A program made the position numbers and the translations under genes. Under the pieces are notes generated by a model. It saw only the letters and a program-made list of their open reading frames with translations, ran no database searches and was not told where the DNA came from. Shown one piece after another: positions 2,556 to 21,500 of a DNA stretch of 64,000 nt. Each line of letters opens with the position of its first letter. The first letter of the stretch is position 1. The stretch comes from Candidatus Hydrogenedentota bacterium (GTDB taxonomy: Bacteria > Hydrogenedentota > Hydrogenedentia > Hydrogenedentales > JAEUWI01), in contig JAXMOL010000002.1 of the NCBI GenBank assembly GCA_034669905.1, positions 96,001 through 160,000 on the forward strand, given 5' to 3'.

Positions 2556-3224
2556 TAGTCGCTCCCGGTTGCGCCGGACATCGCGGTCGTCTCTTGCTCA
2601 ACGTATTCCTAATACACTATCTCAAACAAACAGCCCTCTTGAATTCTTGGCATGCTTTCTATCAGGGTCCATCCCACTTCCATTCTCAGACATTTGATTG
2701 CCAATTATGCAGTAAAGTAAATTGATTCCACTTAACTTAGCACATTATTCTAGCTTGCAAACAAGCACGACATTATGTGCCAATAAACATCAGATTAGGA
2801 TTTACCAATGAGTGACCAATCCGACGAGAGTGAGTTGGAAATAGAGGACGAGAATGATGAACCCGAAGCCCGAGTCAACTATGAAATCGCGACGTACCCG
2901 TCCGATTTTACACTTTCTGGCATCGCCCAGATGTGGAAGGACGGTGATATTGACATCCCGGACTTCCAGAGAGAGTTTGTTTGGTCCATTAAACAGTCTT
3001 CGCTGCTGATTGACTCATTCTTGTGCGGCCTCCCGGTACCGCCCGTATTTTTTTATATTGATGAGAAAAATAAGAATCTTGTCATTGATGGTCAGCAAAG
3101 AATTCTTAGTATAGTCTTCTACATCTCTGAGGGTTACTTTGGCAAAGAAAGCACACATGGAAAGAGAAGTGGACCCCATAGTTTGGACACGTGATCGTGT
3201 TTCTTAAGTGTATCCGCTTTGGGG

Positions 3225-4052
3225 TTATGCCGATGCCTTTGCTTCGGCGCTGATTGATTGGTAGTAGAAGGTATCTGGAGTCATCTTTTCAAGGGCCTGG
3301 TGTTTTCTCCTATGGTTGTAGAATTCCATCCACTGTCGGATGCGTTGTCGGGCGTGGGGAATACTTTCGTAAGCGTTAAGGTAGACCTCCTCATACTTCA
3401 GGCTCCGCCAAAGGCGTTCGATGAATACGTTGTCGACCCAGCGTCCTTTTCCGTCCATGCTGATTTGTACCCCGGCGTCTTTGAGCACTTGGGTGAAGGC
3501 TTCGCTGGTGAACTGGCAGCCCTGGTCCGTGTTGAAGATCTCCGGGGTGCCGTATTTGTGTAGTGCTTCATGGAGTGCCGCCACGCAGAAGTCCGTATCT
3601 AGCGTGTTGGAGAGTCGCCAACTGAGAACCTTTCTGCTGTGCCAGTCCATGATGGCGACCAGGTATATGAAGCCCTTGCGCATAGGGATGTAGGTTATGT
3701 CTGAACACCAGACGTGATTGGCGTGATCGATGTTCAGGTTGCGAAGCAGATAAGGATACACCTTGTGGGCGTGATTGGCACGACTCGTATTGGGCCTTGG
3801 GTACAGGGTCCTCATACCCATTCGGCGCATGAGTCGCTGTACCTTCTTCCGGTTGATGACATAGCCCTCCTCGGCGAGTTCGTCCACGATACGGCGGCTA
3901 CCATAGCACGGCAAACGAAGATGAATCTTGTCCATCGCAGCCATGAGCATCTCGTCGTAGGACCGGTCCACCGTCGGCTGATAGTAGGCGGAGGAACGGG
4001 GCACCGACAACAGGGCACATCGTCGATTCAGGGGTAATTTGTGGGCCTTCAT
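3225..4052 (-). CDS. IS3 OrfB, DDE integrase core
   Basis: WCSDITYI, NTDQGCQFTS, DNVFIERLWRSLKYE motifs. Confidence 0.95.
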   Translation of the reverse strand: MKAHKLPLNRRCALLSVPRSSAYYQPTVDRSYDEMLMAAMDKIHLRLPCYGSRRIVDELAEEGYVINRKKVQRLMRRMGMRTLYPRPNTSRANHAHKVYPYLLRNLNIDHANHVWCSDITYIPMRKGFIYLVAIMDWHSRKVLSWRLSNTLDTDFCVAALHEALHKYGTPEIFNTDQGCQFTSEAFTQVLKDAGVQISMDGKGRWVDNVFIERLWRSLKYEEVYLNAYESIPHARQRIRQWMEFYNHRRKHQALEKMTPDTFYYQSISAEAKASA

Positions 4053-4078
4053 AACGATTTCTTTGCGCTGCGCCCGGT

Positions 4079-4360
4079 CTAACGACCGAGCGCTTTGGCT
4101 AAAAAATCGTTTTCAAGCGTCAGCTGTCCAATCTTGGCGTGGAGCTTTTCCGTGTCGGCCTCGTTCAACCGACGGGTGTCCTCCGTCGAGCCAAAGACAC
4201 CAACCGCTTGCTCAGAAAGCTGCTGTTTCCACTGCTTCACCTGGTTCGGGTGGACATCGAAGCGTTCCGCCAACTCCGCCAAGGTCCCTTCCTCAGACAA
4301 AGCCGCCAGGGCCACTTTTGCTTTAAATGCCGGCGCATGATTCCGTCGTTTACGTCGCAT
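4079..4360 (-). CDS. IS3 OrfA (HTH)
   Basis: [50 protein letters not shown] upstream. Confidence 0.92.
4100..4106 (-). other. -1 ribosomal frameshift heptamer T_TTT_TTA joining OrfA and OrfB
   Basis: A -1 shift at GAT TTT TTA gives [20 protein letters not shown], which runs in frame into orfB. Confidence 0.75.
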
Positions 4361-5174
4361 AGTTCTATCTCCTTGCTTCAAAGAATACGTCAGGAGATAC
4401 ACTTAACGCACTGTCCAGTTTTCGGGGTCCACTTCTAAGAGACAGGTTTTCCGACTAACCGGACTCGGAGACAACAGCCCGTATGACAAGAAGACCTTCA
4501 AGGAACTCAGTGAATCCGACCAAAGAAAACTAAAGCATTCAGTACTCCGCGCAGTAAATATAAGGCAACTCAATCCCGTTGGAGAGAGCACTAGCATATA
4601 CCACATATTTGAGCGCCTAAACACCGGCGGAATACCTCTTAAACCTCAGGAAATACGAAACTGTGTGTTTAGGGGAGAGCTATGTCAATTCCTAAAAGCC
4701 GCGAACACTGATCCCAATTGGAGAAAGCTCATAGGCCGAAAGCACTTGGACAAGCACCAACGTGATGTCGAATTTGTTCTCCGAGTTCTTGCCCTTACTA
4801 GCTCCTCGGGCGAGTACGAGAAGCCGATGAAGGAATTTCTCAATAGTGAAATGAGTAAGAATATTACAGGGAAGTCGCAAAGTGTTCGAAGATTCTTCAA
4901 AGCATTTCCAACAATTACACGAACTCTTGCAAATCAACTCGGCGAAAAGCCTTTTCATATACGCGGCCCGCTTAATATTTCCGTATTAGATTCCGTCATG
5001 GCTGTTCTATTGGAGCACCCTCAGAAAACAAACAAACTAAAAGGCTTGAAAGAAAAATACGAAAGCTTGATCAATGATGCAGAGTTCCTCGAGGCAGCAA
5101 CTGTAAATACAACTGACACAAAAACTGTAAATACTCGTCTAGGAATCGTCCGAAGGGCGTTGCTCGGTGATTGA

Positions 5175-5681
5175 ATGTCATACTCGGACCATTTTAAGCA
5201 TGCGGATGATATAATCACACATTGGAAGACAACAGTCCCTAAGATTTCCGACGATTTGCTGAAAACTAAATATGTCGGTTTTTCTGCTATTGCTGGGGTA
5301 ACCGTATACGAGTTGGCGATTAAGCAAATCCTTACTGAATTTGCCGCTCGCAAACACAAGGTCCTTGGCAATTATGCGGGGAGTCACTTGACCCGCATGA
5401 ATGGAAAGATAAAAATATGTGACCTACGGAAAGACTTTGTACGCAAATTTGGGGACATATATGCCAATAGGTTTGATCGTATCTTGAAGGAAAAACAACG
5501 GCTGTACCTTATTGCCCAAAAGAGAGACTTCAGAAACTCCTACGCCAATATGATTAATTGGCGAAACTCCTTTGCCCACGAAGGTAACACTAATGCGACT
5601 GCTACATTCCAAGAAGTTGTCAGTGCATACGAAGATGGCAAACAGGTAATTCACTGCCTCGCTAAGACAATGACCAGATAA
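5175..5681 (+). CDS. HEPN-domain protein (putative RNase)
   Basis: R-x4-H motif WRNSFAHEG near the C-terminus of a helical 168-aa protein. ATG directly follows the DUF262 stop codon. Confidence 0.8.
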   Translation: MSYSDHFKHADDIITHWKTTVPKISDDLLKTKYVGFSAIAGVTVYELAIKQILTEFAARKHKVLGNYAGSHLTRMNGKIKICDLRKDFVRKFGDIYANRFDRILKEKQRLYLIAQKRDFRNSYANMINWRNSFAHEGNTNATATFQEVVSAYEDGKQVIHCLAKTMTR

Positions 5682-5918: not shown

Positions 5919-6063
5919 TTTTTGTGGGACGAGTGGGACGGTCGAATAGTGAATGATGAATTGAGAATAGTGAATTGACTGTCTCGTCTTTCGGTGCCAC
6001 ATCATCTGAACGACACAGGTCCCACAGGTCCCACAGGTCCCACAGGTCCCACAGGTCCTACAG
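5919..6063. repeat. Palindromic cassette of short-period repeats
   Basis: TGTGGGACGAGTGGGAC, then GAATAGT-type 7-mers, then five tandem CACAGGTCC (6014-6058). Confidence 0.85.
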
Positions 6064-6081
6064 AATCGGGTGAGCCCTGCT

Positions 6082-6660
6082 TTAATCCTCGTCGTGCCGT
6101 CGTCCCTTTTGCCCATCCCGAATTGCGAGGCGGGCCCTGGTCATGCGTTCGCGGAGGCCGCCGTGCTCGAGGAATTCTTTTTCGAGATGGCGTAGCTGTC
6201 GGTTGAGCAGGTAGGTGGTCTGGTGAATCAGACAAATCACAATATTTGCCACCGTCTCGGGCGGGCGGGTGGTGAGGAAGGGTTCGAAGGTGGCGTAGGT
6301 CACGCCCTCGCCTTGGCTCAGGCGGCGCACGTAGCGCGCTTCTTTGCTTTCCTTGTCCCAGAGGTCCCCGTCGTGGGTGCGCAGGTAGTCGAGGTAGTCG
6401 GCGAGGAGCTCTTCCAGGCTGGCGCGGGCGACGTTGGTCAGCTTGATTTCCATTTCCTTGGAGGTGCCGGCCGCCTGGCTGCCTTCGATGATGTTCTGCT
6501 TTCCCGAGCGCGCCGCCTGGACCATCTGGTCATAGGTGCGGTCCCGTTTGCTCAGAAATCGCCGACAGAAACAGACGGTGGCGTCGTAGACGATTTCTGA
6601 CTTCTGGTAGGAAAGGAGGTGGGCGTAGCCGCCGTGTTTTGGTATGAAGCCCTCGCTCAT
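6082..6660 (-). CDS. Four-helix-bundle protein, 'suffix-domain' type (23S-IVP/Avd-like superfamily)
   Basis: GGY..LLSYQK.EIVYDAT..FC.RFL..DRTYDQMVQAARSGKQNIIEGS..TNVARASLEELL.DY..F..GGLRERMTRAR. Confidence 0.85.
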   Translation of the reverse strand: MSEGFIPKHGGYAHLLSYQKSEIVYDATVCFCRRFLSKRDRTYDQMVQAARSGKQNIIEGSQAAGTSKEMEIKLTNVARASLEELLADYLDYLRTHDGDLWDKESKEARYVRRLSQGEGVTYATFEPFLTTRPPETVANIVICLIHQTTYLLNRQLRHLEKEFLEHGGLRERMTRARLAIRDGQKGRRHDED

Positions 6661-6735
6661 GATAACCGCCCCGCTATGCGTGTGTTGTGGTTTACTCCCT
6701 GGATGATGATAGAAACGCGGGGCGGGTTTCCAGTT

Positions 6736-6977
6736 TTTTGTGGGACGAGTGGGACTTGTGGGACCGGTGAGACAGCCGAAAAGAGAATTGATTGTCTCGT
6801 CGTGCGGCAGAGTCTTTCCGGAGTGAATTTAGAACCCCAGAAACTTTACTGGATTCCCGCATGCGCGGGAATGACAAATCGCCACCTCGAACGGGGTCGT
6901 GGGCCCGGTGAGCCTGCGTGGTCTACCTGACGTCGTCAGGCCGTCCCACAGGTCTCACCGGTCCCACTCGTCCCACA
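6736..6977. repeat. Second palindromic 9-mer cassette enclosing an ATTCCCGC..GCGGGAAT hairpin
   Basis: 6739-6773 is an imperfect inverse of 6943-6977. TGGATTCCCGCATGCGCGGGAATGAC at 6850-6875. Confidence 0.8.
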
Positions 6978-7007
6978 TAACTTCAAAAAGGACCCTCGGC
7001 CTTCAGC

Positions 7008-7082
7008 CTATTTCCATTTAATTTTCGCCACATACACCGAGTTATCCGAGCCATATTTCTCGATGCCCACGGGCTGCATCCA
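7008..7082 (-). repeat. Duplicated 3' end (24 codons + stop) of the 7618-8787 gene
   Basis: 69/75 identical to 7618-7692; all six differences are synonymous. Confidence 0.95.
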
Positions 7083-7619
7083 AGGGAGTACTGAATGATG
7101 AATTGAGAATAGTGAATTAATAGGACAAACTCACTTTTCTCTTCCTACTGCGCAGCTATAGAGCGCCGTTCATAAACCTTGATTCTTTTTGGTTTTCATC
7201 ACAATTACGACGAGTATACTCACAATTTCGTTGGCTTCCGTGACCATATCCTGCAGCTGCTTTTCCGAGCACAGTTCCACCGCCTGCAACAGCCGCAACC
7301 AATAGAGCGTTTCGCGGGCCTCTTTCAGTGCTATCGCCATTTTCGAAATGAAATCGGCTCTGCTTTGGCCTCCCTGCGCCTCCTCCACATTGGCACCTAT
7401 AGAGGTCCCAGCGCGCAGCAACTGGTTCGCCAAAGTCCGGGAGACACCTGGATTCTTGTCGAGAAACTGCGCCAACCTCACGACCCGGACCGCGAAGTTA
7501 AATGTCCGAGCGGTAATGTGCTCCTGAACCGCCAACTTGTCAGCCCTTCGCTATCTTTGAAACTGCGCCGCTCATTTCACAAAAATTCACTATTCTAAAT
7601 TCGCTATTCTCTACTCCCT
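7083..7619 (-). mobile_element. Putative IR-bounded mini-cassette carrying a four-helix-bundle gene
   Basis: 36-bp imperfect IRs at 7083-7118 and 7584-7619, abutting the two copies of the host-gene 3' end. Confidence 0.6.
7170..7535 (-). CDS. Four-helix-bundle protein (23S rRNA IVP / TIGR02436-like)
   Basis: RTFNFAVRVV..QLLRAGTSIGANVEEAQGGQSRADFISKMAIALKEARETLYWLRLL. Confidence 0.9.
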   Translation of the reverse strand: MAVQEHITARTFNFAVRVVRLAQFLDKNPGVSRTLANQLLRAGTSIGANVEEAQGGQSRADFISKMAIALKEARETLYWLRLLQAVELCSEKQLQDMVTEANEIVSILVVIVMKTKKNQGL

Positions 7620-8787
7620 ATTTCCATTTGATCTTGGCCACATACACCGAATTATCCGAGCCGTATTTTTCGATGCCCACGGGCTGCATCCATTCGGCGA
7701 CGCTGACCCAGGTTTCGTTGTCGCTCACTTTGGTGACGGCGAAGTTACCGAGGCGGGCGCCGCGTTCGGGGACGAGGATGCGTTCGGTGCTGCGGATGAC
7801 TTGCAGCGTGTCGGGGTTGACCTGGGCCATGAAGAGGGGTGCGCGGTGACGGAAGACGTGGTCGTTGTTGGCACCACGGCGGGTGTAGACCAGGAAGAGG
7901 CCGTCGGGGTGGGTGACCCAGTGTTGCTGGGTGTTGTAGGAGCCCAGCTCTTCGCCGTCGTCGAAGGTCCAGGGCTTGGCTTCGTCGAAGTGGAGGCCGT
8001 CGCTACCGCTGGTGACGTAGCCCTTCACATCGTTGCGGAGGGTGAGGAAAAAGCGGCCCTTGTATTCGGCGAGGGAGGGCTCGGGAAAGCCGCGTTCCAC
8101 GGGCACGGTGTGCATGCTGCCGTGCTCGACGTAGGAGAGGGTGTCGCCGTCAAAGCGGGCGCGCACCACGGTGGCGCTGTATTGCTTGGTGTCTTTCCCC
8201 TTGAAATAAATGGGCAGCAGGATGTCGCCATTGGGCAGGTCGACGCGCTGGGTGCAACCGGCGCCGTTGTTGAAGAAGTAGGGCTCGTCGGGCATCTCCA
8301 TGTTCTTCCACGTGGACCAGGTGCGGGCTTCGGGATTGTAGACCGAATAGGCGGTCGTCCGGGCCCGGTTGGTGTGGATGAGCTTGTTGTCCTTGTTGTA
8401 CATGGCGGTGTGGCCCGTGCCCAGGAGCTTGCCGGTGGCGGCGTGCCACTTGGGGGTGAAGTCACAGATGACCGCCGTGCCGCCGTCACCATAGGGGATG
8501 CGCCCGAGGTTTTCGTGCTCGGTGGGTCCGCTCCAGGTCTTGCCACCGTCGTCGGTCCGCATTTCGTTGAGGGCGTAGAAAATATCCGAGCCACTCAGGA
8601 GGAGCTTCTGCATGGTGAGCACCACCGTGGGCGTTTCCCCCGGGATGGTCCCCGCACGGGGATGGACCCAGCAGGTTTCTTTGTCGAATCCCGAGCTGAT
8701 GGTCTGTAAATCGATATCGTAATCGACGGCGGTTACGGGCAGTAGTCCGATAGTCAAAGCCAATGCCGTTATATAGCGTGTAATCAT
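7618..8787 (-). CDS. Secreted sialidase-like / BNR-repeat beta-propeller protein
   Basis: Signal peptide; Asp-box motifs TDDGGKTW and SDGLHF; AAGGAG RBS. Confidence 0.75.
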   Translation of the reverse strand: MITRYITALALTIGLLPVTAVDYDIDLQTISSGFDKETCWVHPRAGTIPGETPTVVLTMQKLLLSGSDIFYALNEMRTDDGGKTWSGPTEHENLGRIPYGDGGTAVICDFTPKWHAATGKLLGTGHTAMYNKDNKLIHTNRARTTAYSVYNPEARTWSTWKNMEMPDEPYFFNNGAGCTQRVDLPNGDILLPIYFKGKDTKQYSATVVRARFDGDTLSYVEHGSMHTVPVERGFPEPSLAEYKGRFFLTLRNDVKGYVTSGSDGLHFDEAKPWTFDDGEELGSYNTQQHWVTHPDGLFLVYTRRGANNDHVFRHRAPLFMAQVNPDTLQVIRSTERILVPERGARLGNFAVTKVSDNETWVSVAEWMQPVGIEKYGSDNSVYVAKIKWK

Positions 8788-9019
8788 GTCTTCTCCTTCA
8801 GCGTTTGCGCTGTTGTCCTTTACGTCCTTGAGGTCGTTTGTGTCTTTTTTAAACTAGTCGCTCGCCTTCGGCGTTGCCGCAGTAGCGGCAAGGCAGGTAT
8901 TCCTACGGGGGACCGTAGGAACAAGGCATTTCGGTTATGCCGGCGGGCCGCCGGCGCTCCATAGAATTCCCAATTCTAAATTCTAAATTCACTATTCAAA
9001 ATTCACCATTCTAACTTCT

Positions 9020-20021: not shown

Positions 20022-21500
20022 CTAGTCCTTTCGCACTTCCGCACGGGCTTCAAGCGCGGCCAGAAACGGATCGGTATGGCCAAAGCCATCCATATCCAGA
20101 CTGCGCTCCCACCGAATATCTTCCGGCCGATCATGAATCGTCGGCGTAACAAAAATCATCAATTCGCGGCTGGTGCGCGTACGCTCTTTGTGCTTGAACA
20201 GGTTTCCGAAGATGGGAAGATTGCCCAGGCCCGGGAGCTTTTGAATCACCGTGTGGTTGTCGGCCATCACGATACCGCCGATCACCAGGGACTGACCATC
20301 CCGCACGATGCGCTGGCTGTTGCTGCTGCGCAGGGCGCGCACGGGCACCCCATTGGAAACGCCAACCGCGGTGGACACTTCGGGGGCCAACTCCACCAGG
20401 ACGTAACGTCCCCCATCTGGATCGCGGCGCACGTGGGGCACCACTTCCAACACAATACCAATCTCCAGGAACTGCACATTTTCGACGGAAGAAAAGCCGG
20501 CCGTCCCGACTTCGGAATAGGGAAACTCTTCCGTCATCCGAATCGTTGCCGGTTTGTGGTTGACCGTACCCACATAAGGGGACGCCAACAACTCGGCTTT
20601 GTCGTCGGCCACGAGGGCATCCAGCATGACCCCCAAATCGATCCCGCTGTTCATGTACCCGAGAAACATCTGGCCCGGGGCAGCGACCTGAACCGGTACC
20701 TGAAGGCGCCGATCAAAGTTTGCTTCATCCAGGAAACGACGGCTGGGCCCCCCGCCCCGATTACCGGTATCGAGTGACTCATTGAATTCAGGACCCACGG
20801 ACTGACGAATGGAGGTCAGCAGGGCATCCTGCCGCGGTGGTGGCGTGTATCCACCGCCCGCATGGTCTCCCTGGACGAACCAACGGATACCCAACTCTTT
20901 GGCGGCCGCCGTTTCCACTTCCACGATCTTGGACTCAATCAGCACCTGGGTAATCTGAGATTCCATCTGGTCCAACTCGTGGATGACGGAAATCATGTTT
21001 TGAAGAATCCCCGATTCGTCGGTCAGAATCAGGCTGTTGGTGTTGGGGTCGAAGCTGACGCTGCCACCAGCCGATGACATGCCATTCAGCGCTTTTTCCA
21101 GGCCGCCGGCGTCGGCATTATTCAAGGGGATAACCTTGGTCTGCATCGACTGGGTCCGCATGACGCCACCGGGAAGGGCCATAGCGCCCTCGATGCTTCG
21201 GGAAACGGTGACCCGCGGATTTTTCAGGATACTCTTGAATCCCATGGAGACCCGTGCTCCGGCATCATTCAGACTCAGCCCCTTCAAGGTGACGTTGCCA
21301 ATATACGGCAATTCCACGTTGCCCTGGCTGTCTATCTGGGTGGTCGTCGAAAGTTCCGGCTGACGATGCACGTTGATATACACCAGATCCCCGGGTTTCA
21401 AAAAATCCTCTTTCATCGGCTCGGCCGCAAAAGACGGCCCGCCGAGACAAAGGCAGACGAAAAGGGGAATCAGGGTGAACCGCGTTGGCAGGCTTAACAT
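20022..21500 (-). CDS. Fusion of a Wza-like polysaccharide-export domain with a secretin (N3 + C domains)
   Basis: LKPGD.V.I.V..QPELS..IDSQGNVELPYIG.V..GLS..KNPRVTV, then VIPLNNADA..DPNTNSLIL..QVLIESKIVEV and VRDGQSLVIGG..KLPGLGNLPIFGNLFK..ELMIFVTPTI. Confidence 0.85.
   Translation of the reverse strand: MLSLPTRFTLIPLFVCLCLGGPSFAAEPMKEDFLKPGDLVYINVHRQPELSTTTQIDSQGNVELPYIGNVTLKGLSLNDAGARVSMGFKSILKNPRVTVSRSIEGAMALPGGVMRTQSMQTKVIPLNNADAGGLEKALNGMSSAGGSVSFDPNTNSLILTDESGILQNMISVIHELDQMESQITQVLIESKIVEVETAAAKELGIRWFVQGDHAGGGYTPPPRQDALLTSIRQSVGPEFNESLDTGNRGGGPSRRFLDEANFDRRLQVPVQVAAPGQMFLGYMNSGIDLGVMLDALVADDKAELLASPYVGTVNHKPATIRMTEEFPYSEVGTAGFSSVENVQFLEIGIVLEVVPHVRRDPDGGRYVLVELAPEVSTAVGVSNGVPVRALRSSNSQRIVRDGQSLVIGGIVMADNHTVIQKLPGLGNLPIFGNLFKHKERTRTSRELMIFVTPTIHDRPEDIRWERSLDMDGFGHTDPFLAALEARAEVRKD

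Follow-up and report, generated by a model that had tools for sequence, protein, structure and literature searches.

A displaced gene tail behind a four-helix-bundle cassette in a Candidatus Hydrogenedentota genome, and its probable re-use in homologous recombination

A 610-bp unit, composed of a gene end and a small cassette with a four-helix-bundle gene, was found inserted at the 3′ end of a protein-coding gene within the window, i.e. the whole 64,000-nt stretch analysed here (contig JAXMOL010000002.1 of assembly GCA_034669905.1, Candidatus Hydrogenedentota bacterium). With a probability that we put at roughly 0.7, the unit arose through one homology-anchored illegitimate joint and then spread by homologous recombination via the spare copy of the gene tail. 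On this best reading the scar belongs to a type already known, long target duplication or C-terminal displacement, and does not reflect a new mobile-element machine. New are the population snapshots of its re-use, and the location of the joint at the base of a predicted stem.

The duplicated gene end and the cassette

The features of the locus are the following (window coordinates).

7618..8787, minus strand: host gene, 389 aa, secreted-looking, no family match
7618..7692, minus strand: tail copy 1, last 24 codons and stop, within the live gene
7008..7082, minus strand: tail copy 2 (orphan), stop-free, 6 synonymous differences, continuing into the flank seen behind the gene in the empty allele of congener G007
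7584..7619, minus strand: 5′ arm, heptamer array of GAATAGT type, beginning inside the host stop codon
7170..7535, minus strand: four-helix-bundle gene, TIGR02436 / PF05635 (23S rRNA IVP family), 121 aa, PDB relative 2rld
7083..7118, minus strand: 3′ arm, inverted heptamer array, its last base closing the predicted stem and abutting the junction
7082..7083, no strand: fixed junction between arm and tail copy 2, common to sequencing runs of other studies and present twice in metagenome contig L178
7083..7692, no strand: 610-bp unit (tail and cassette), absent from the empty allele

The host protein gave no match in Pfam, NCBIfam or the PDB sequences, and because of this lack of a family match “sialidase-like” stays a mere label for the gene; the protein contains what we take to be an Asp-box-like motif, and relatives of the gene were present in 28 of the 41 genomes searched. 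A direct repeat of 76 nt and 92% identity (7007-7082 / 7617-7692, repeat finder) covers its end, the coding tail part accounting for 75 bp. When the 25 codons are aligned in the host frame, 19 are identical, 6 differ synonymously (GAA/GAG, TAC/TAT, AAT/AAC, GCC/GCG, AAG/AAA, ATC/ATT) and none differs non-synonymously, and the encoded peptide is the same. Six synonymous changes out of six would be expected by chance with a probability of 4e-5 under random substitution, or 2e-4 with transition bias. Four changes are private to copy 2 relative to both copy 1 and the G007 gene, and all four are synonymous (p ~1e-3 to 3e-3).

The cassette measures about 537 nt. Its ORF 7170-7535 scores 97.5 bits against TIGR02436 (cut-off 24) and 81.8 bits against PF05635 (cut-off 33.8), the nearest solved relative of the product is 2rld (E 8e-25), and its best hits assign the organism to Candidatus Hydrogenedentota. 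The arms (7083-7118 / 7584-7619) form an inverted repeat of 36 nt and 83% identity, i.e. 30/36 matches (repeat finder), and no recombinase was found among the ORFs of the 610-bp unit. In all these respects the initial annotation of this DNA holds: it had described a duplication of the last 75 bp of the host gene with synonymous differences only, two copies that both evolved as coding alleles, and 36-bp inverted repeats matching at 30 positions around the four-helix-bundle gene of a recombinase-free cassette. Its picture of an element bounded by these repeats stands as far as the inverted arms are concerned, but the arms are not private ends. They consist of 7-nt repeat arrays found again at 5944-5976 and 8965-9011, with 53 regex matches of the arm pattern genome-wide, and are therefore not element-private terminal repeats.

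The TIGR02436/PF05635 family has 6 matches in the genome, 2 of them in the window. All 4 family genes on other contigs are enclosed by inverted 7- or 9-nt arrays, beginning right at a host stop codon in 2 of the 4 cases, and the arms of the other family genes differ from those of the window cassette. Folded as RNA, the cassette is predicted to form a stem, at the base of which the AG of the host stop codon is paired with the terminal bases of the arm. This stem is present in both the MFE and the centroid structures (z -2.44, 2/100 shuffles as good), and the orphan junction follows directly upon its predicted base. Only 0.10-0.15 of the words are present in RNA runs X19 and X20.

A literature search, which left subscription papers mostly outside its scope, found no description of heptamer-armed four-helix-bundle cassettes or of gene-tail duplicates associated with them. 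The family is not mentioned in the accessible part of the work on Beggiatoa heptamer repeats (PMC4679880), and the part of PMC2884548 available to us is a general treatment of small variable segments with flanking repeats.

An insertion with an empty counterpart

In congener G007, whose host protein is 97% identical, the stop codon of the host gene runs straight into the flank that lies behind copy 2 in the window. This allele is thus empty, and the unit of tail and cassette, 610 bp, is a real insertion. The tail of the G007 gene differs from copy 1 at 3 positions and from copy 2 at 5, yet its flank is that of copy 2. A donor allele, in which the arm is followed by its original flank, was not found.

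The assembly is metagenome-derived and several strains occur in related runs, which might suggest that two strains had been collapsed into one artificial duplicate. We consider this most improbable. An 845-nt contig of run X2 covers positions 6974-7818, and thus both copies, without a single differing letter; X2 belongs to the same study as the best holder of the sequence, X1, and is possibly near the source sample. Cassette and junction occur as well in X3 and X8, from other studies, and in X5 and X10. Of the outcomes named in the initial annotation, an empty site in a related genome is at hand, and the duplicate does not dissolve into collapsed strain variants, as judged from contigs and the empty G007 allele.

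One junction followed by several tails

The junction between arm and orphan is followed by different sequences in different strains. In run X10, one 1149-nt contig leads from the end of the cassette through the same junction and an orphan into a spacer of another type, 120 nt long. Its orphan has 7 other letters over 7011-7150, and the match ends before the stop codon. The 120-nt alternative spacer type was also found in X5 and X8, and both spacer types in X3. The listed orphan differences (7038, 7041, 7047, 7059) all fall at third codon positions.

Among the metagenome contigs scanned for the junction, L178 was the single stretch with two junction matches, 608 nt apart. Its order is arm end, junction, tail A, whole cassette, junction, tail B, alternative spacer, and its cassette is identical to that of the window at 530 of 536 aligned bases. 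Tail A is G007-like, with 1 difference from the G007 gene end; tail B ends in Lys-Lys-stop, as the intact gene of G004 does. To judge from its sequence, L178 apparently represents a tandem of two units; the tandem starts at the contig start and the first 110 nt equal nt 609-718, so that an assembler loop is possible in this one contig. The single-unit alleles in X10, X5, X8 and X3 are evidence independent of L178. Among the joints listed for the six aligned runs there is none of the going-back kind.

In total, three orphan alleles (window, G007-like, Lys-Lys-stop) and two downstream flanks lie behind one and the same junction, and all five observed alleles agree over the first 23 bp of the repeat. 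Sequence comparison thus demonstrates that orphans and flanks have been exchanged behind a fixed joint. One locus is thereby available in several natural states: empty, single with two flanks, and as an apparent tandem.

A further state was found in G005, where an ORF-less heptamer hairpin behind the same host gene precedes a duplicate of that genome's own gene tail; 10 synonymous differences over 23 codons were counted from the sequence. The stem reaches from the stop codon to the start of the tail duplicate. This case may not be independent of the window, since a 19-nt arm stretch is common to both. The idea that the ORF-less hairpins of G005, G006 and G001 are decayed window cassettes was rejected: loop similarity was not above that of shuffles, 461, 46 and 219 of 500 of which, respectively, were as good.

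Spacers around the host gene

Two further features flank the locus.

8965..9011, minus strand: lone heptamer arm in the spacer upstream of the host gene, behind the stop of a PQQ dehydrogenase
5919..6980, minus strand: neighbouring nonamer-armed cassette region with a TIGR02436+TIGR04258 gene (6082-6660), common to G007

Full four-helix-bundle cassettes occupy the upstream spacer of the host gene in G007 (C471 ~20700-21300) and G006 (C86 ~2900-3600), the former with 71% DNA identity to the cassette of the window, and no tail duplicate was seen at these upstream cassettes. Cassettes of this kind are gained and lost on either side of the host gene. The region 5919-6980 is likely a downstream homology block. 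Its gene is enclosed by inverted arrays of nonamers in which heptamer pieces are nested, a REP-like palindrome lies near 6848-6877, and the spacer is strain-variable.

Displaced tails elsewhere, and four-helix-bundle genes

An orphan downstream copy of the last 12 codons was detected for 18 of 4511 genes (crude gene calls), against 1 upstream, 1 mid-gene and 1 start-downstream copy in the controls for the same 4511 genes, and a DNA-only scan retrieved nearly the same set. After removal of 5 of the 18 (two tandem repeats and three paralogues), 13 gene ends at 11 loci remained, i.e. ~0.3% of the gene ends in this genome (G000). Their codon differences comprise 60 synonymous and 35 non-synonymous ones in a screen that favours conserved peptides. 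The repeats measure 47-213 bp and affect unrelated genes, no common core was seen by eye at the junctions of the 11 loci, and the insert lacks a GAAT-type heptamer array at 9 of them. The cargo is equally diverse (Gp49/HTH pair, MazE-PIN pair, YhcG, MerC, ankyrin, GxGYxYP and unknowns), and a four-helix-bundle gene is found at 1 locus out of 11, that of the window; the other 5 family genes of the genome are absent from the list of tail duplicates.

A paralogous locus on C8 repeats the pattern with toxin-antitoxin cargo: G000 and G007 have the same junction and HigBA-like cargo there. Between the orphan and its own gene, 4 of 71 codons differ in G000 and 43 of 71 in G007 (26 synonymous, no stop), different DNA and cargo follow in each genome, and a similar HigBA-like pair lies behind an orphan in G003. 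At C1, G007 matches copy 1 and has cargo but no orphan; the four other congeners searched were empty but too distant. For C28, C41 and C53, no close allele covering the tail was found from which the polarity of donor and recipient could be read. An identical tandem duplication (30/30 codons the same) is present at C12. Mirror orphans at the 5′ end are rarer, with 13 raw cases against 22 for 3′ orphans, and about 1 clear (C18) plus 3 possible ones against 13 curated 3′ orphans. In the clear case (C18:60160-60233), the ribosome-binding site and first 18 codons are duplicated 321 nt upstream of the gene.

Further arrangements were observed in passing. At C8:127992-130476 and C54:20951-21622, the ends of two convergent genes are both duplicated around one insert. 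At C27:45196-46442, a YhcG/DUF1016 gene is inserted behind the end of an hsdM-like gene (a sequence label), whose tail is displaced; 14 nt separate a heptamer arm from the junction that follows it. In another species (G001 C22:146192-148347), a MazE-like gene akin to the C41 cargo is located ~1.4 kb behind the same host gene.

A wider survey comprised 110 loci of four-helix-bundle genes, of which 8 were dropped (no tblastn hit) and 102 scanned with crude gene calls (longest ORFs). Tail duplicates were scored at 2 of the 133 gene ends adjoining family genes, namely in the window and at L113, the latter being a heptamer artefact. No true duplicate was thus seen at the other 132 adjoining gene ends (upper 95% bound ~2.2%), and control gene ends in the same survey yielded 1/333 (distant) and 2/97 (intermediate). 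Enrichment of tail duplicates at four-helix-bundle genes is rejected on these figures, with 1 true case in 133 against 1/333 and 2/97. The scar type is common: ~0.3% of gene ends carry it in this genome, as does 1 control gene end among 333 in other taxa. The suggestion of an undescribed gene-end-targeting mechanism driven by four-helix-bundle genes finds no footing here: the 11 loci have unrelated cargo, the window is the only true case among 133 gene ends, congeners carry a related cassette on the other side of the same gene with no tail duplicate seen, and the anatomy is that of published insertion types.

Two survey loci deserve mention in their own right. At L140 (2439-4005, minus strand), which holds a four-helix-bundle gene, a tail duplicate with 7 synonymous and 2 non-synonymous differences continues for 24 nt beyond the stop, reaching into a heptamer arm. 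At L144 (279-1785, -/+ 1.6 kb), a gene-end repeat with adenine-rich differences in the downstream copy lies near a PF05635-like gene; on this cyanobacterial contig, it is probably a true TR/VR pair of a diversity-generating retroelement (DGR).

Origin and spread of the unit

Heptamer-armed cassettes, with or without a four-helix-bundle gene, are located right behind stop codons in the genus, and this also applies to the host gene of the window. We propose that a gene end together with such cassette DNA would once have recombined into a homologous gene, its far end becoming linked, where the arm stem has its base, to a position 75 bp ahead of the stop codon, either by homology-facilitated illegitimate recombination or by way of a circle that had closed there. 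Flanked as it now is by direct repeats of a conserved coding tail, the unit could enter other alleles by one crossover in the gene and another in the 75-bp repeat; alternatively, an excised circle could integrate by a single crossover. The gene end and downstream spacer of the recipient would then land behind the fixed junction, so that the orphan would always look like a coding allele newly taken out of use. Tandem units would result from unequal crossover or from repeated integration, and crossover between the repeats would lead to loss of the unit. These routes we infer from the end states. In the spread of the unit the four-helix-bundle gene is likely to be cargo. A gene for ComEC is present in the genome. 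Of the Campbell-like arrival put forward in the initial annotation, the homology-driven event that displaced the resident 3′ end is retained, in view of three tail alleles and two flanks, and the new mechanism is not.

Some points speak against our preferred reading. A repeat of 75 bp at 92% identity is a short substrate for RecA, and polarity is not clean, the G007 tail standing at 3 differences from one copy and 5 from the other. The joint lies at the stem base in the window and in G005, and 14 nt behind the arm at C27. Finally, credible mirror orphans at the 5′ end are fewer than 3′ orphans.

A joint at the stem base is unexpected from sequence-blind joining, and a variant in which the arms direct mobility therefore stays alive, if as an outside chance. 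The heptamer stem, as single-stranded DNA or RNA, would be cut or reverse-transcribed at its base and so set the joint, the four-helix-bundle protein perhaps binding the stem. Circles of gene end and cassette that target gene ends would result. The predicted stem does end at the junction, the ORF-less hairpin of G005 spans from stop codon to tail duplicate, an arm precedes the C27 junction, and IVS stems are cut by RNase III according to the available text of PMC4990558. Against this, none of the 132 other gene ends beside family genes is duplicated, the other 5 family genes of this genome have no tail duplicate, 9 of the 11 loci have no GAAT-type array, and G005 may descend from the same event. 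It is conceivable at similarly long odds that the cassettes are minimal selfish units, in which a cut or template switch at the stem base captures the tail in a circle as a self-made attachment site. If so, the captured tail would let them invade, amplify and leave again across strains and species without a recombinase. L178 would then be a tandem or circle joint caught in the act, and the spread of IVS-type elements would be explained.

Site-specific integration of the kind known for e14 at icd, with an integrase lost or acting in trans and an attP that carries an alternative gene end, appears improbable. The anatomy is the same, including synonymous differences between icd and icdC in the available account (PMC13626634), the left boundary is fixed with its 23 identical base pairs in five alleles, and the genome has 9 tyrosine recombinase (PF00589) matches. 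None of these 9 lies in the window, leaving action in trans, the unit runs from arm to arm with no integrase remnant, and the 11 loci involve unrelated genes and repeats of 47-213 bp with no common core by eye.

Duplication in cis, in which the orphan of a long target-site duplication would have drifted neutrally with no allele exchange, has the merit of simplicity, and the identical C12 tandem exemplifies its product. It is largely refuted by the allele swaps and retains very little probability: all 6 differences (p 4e-5 to 2e-4) and all 4 copy-2-private changes are silent, and three orphan alleles and two flanks share one junction.

The order of gene end, hairpin, Avd-like gene and repeat recalls a DGR with the target as VR and a template repeat, and PF05635 resembles Avd in the available part of PMC10053308; with adenine of either copy at only 1 of 6 differences, all changes silent, strain differences at third codon positions, and the single RVT_1 (PF00078) match of the genome on contig C70, this origin can in practice be discarded. 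An insertion sequence or MITE was rejected, given arms of a dispersed heptamer family, a duplication of 75 bp and different arms at other family genes.

Comparison with known systems

The first report of an insertion with long target duplication is said to be that of Nobusato et al. in 2000. In the accessible parts of Furuta et al. 2010 (PMC2853133), the repeats of such insertions are slightly diverged and sometimes located over a gene 3′ end, and invasion, amplification through the repeats and release are proposed, with direct evidence for amplification alone. As in the insertions described there, the direct repeat is unique and longer than 30 bp (here 75 bp), with a single copy in the empty genome (G007), and the insert is below 20 kb with no other mobile genes (here 610 bp with one known-family ORF). 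Restriction-modification cargo, which in those parts of the paper is a feature of the screen and not of the mechanism, is replaced by PF05635 here, and by TA pairs and others elsewhere. In contrast to that account, the repeat here is exactly a coding tail, and the swapped orphan alleles bear on re-invasion, a step that, according to those parts, lacked experimental evidence.

C-terminal displacement, or HFIR, in T6SS/Rhs/CDI arrays (Kirchberger et al. 2017, PMC5361080) is similar in that upstream homology anchors the incoming module and the resident 3′ end is pushed downstream; in the available text, successive events build arrays, like those of G003 and G007 at the C8 paralogue. As in HFIR, copy 2 continues into the G007 flank and the other orphans into another flank. 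Whereas the displaced part there is, as far as that text goes, a variable toxin tip or immunity gene under selection, it is here a conserved tail, and the new tail encodes the same peptide. The prophage e14 in Escherichia coli icd/icdC likewise provides a synonymous alternative 3′ end that restores the gene and leaves the old end as a pseudogene; unlike the unit of the window, which has no integrase in it or nearby, e14 is a 15-kb element using site-specific recombination (PMC13626634, available part).

ORF-bearing intervening sequences of 23S rRNA (S23p/IVP), as portrayed for Coxiella in the sections of PMC4990558 at hand, also have a PF05635 ORF within complementary stem ends and are 428-444 nt in size, compared to ~537 nt here. 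The cassette differs from them in lying behind the stop codon of a protein-coding gene and not in rRNA, and in its arms being heptamer arrays. Minimal mobile elements of Neisseria are small recombinase-free gene sets that occupy syntenic slots and are exchanged between strains; a duplicated gene tail is not described for them in the available part of PMC1797815.

Our findings support the view that gene tails, once displaced, are not dead scars and can be used again as homology arms in gene traffic that needs no recombinase. If the stem also fixes the joint, this would offer a handle on how IVS-type cassettes move.

Other features of the window

Elsewhere in the window, a GmrSD_N-type gene is apparently split by an inserted element and followed by a RiboL-PSP-HEPN gene (2808-5681). 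The splitting element, with two ORFs (3225-4402), is presumably IS3-like. Together with an HNH gene at 1456-2265, this region forms a small defence island.
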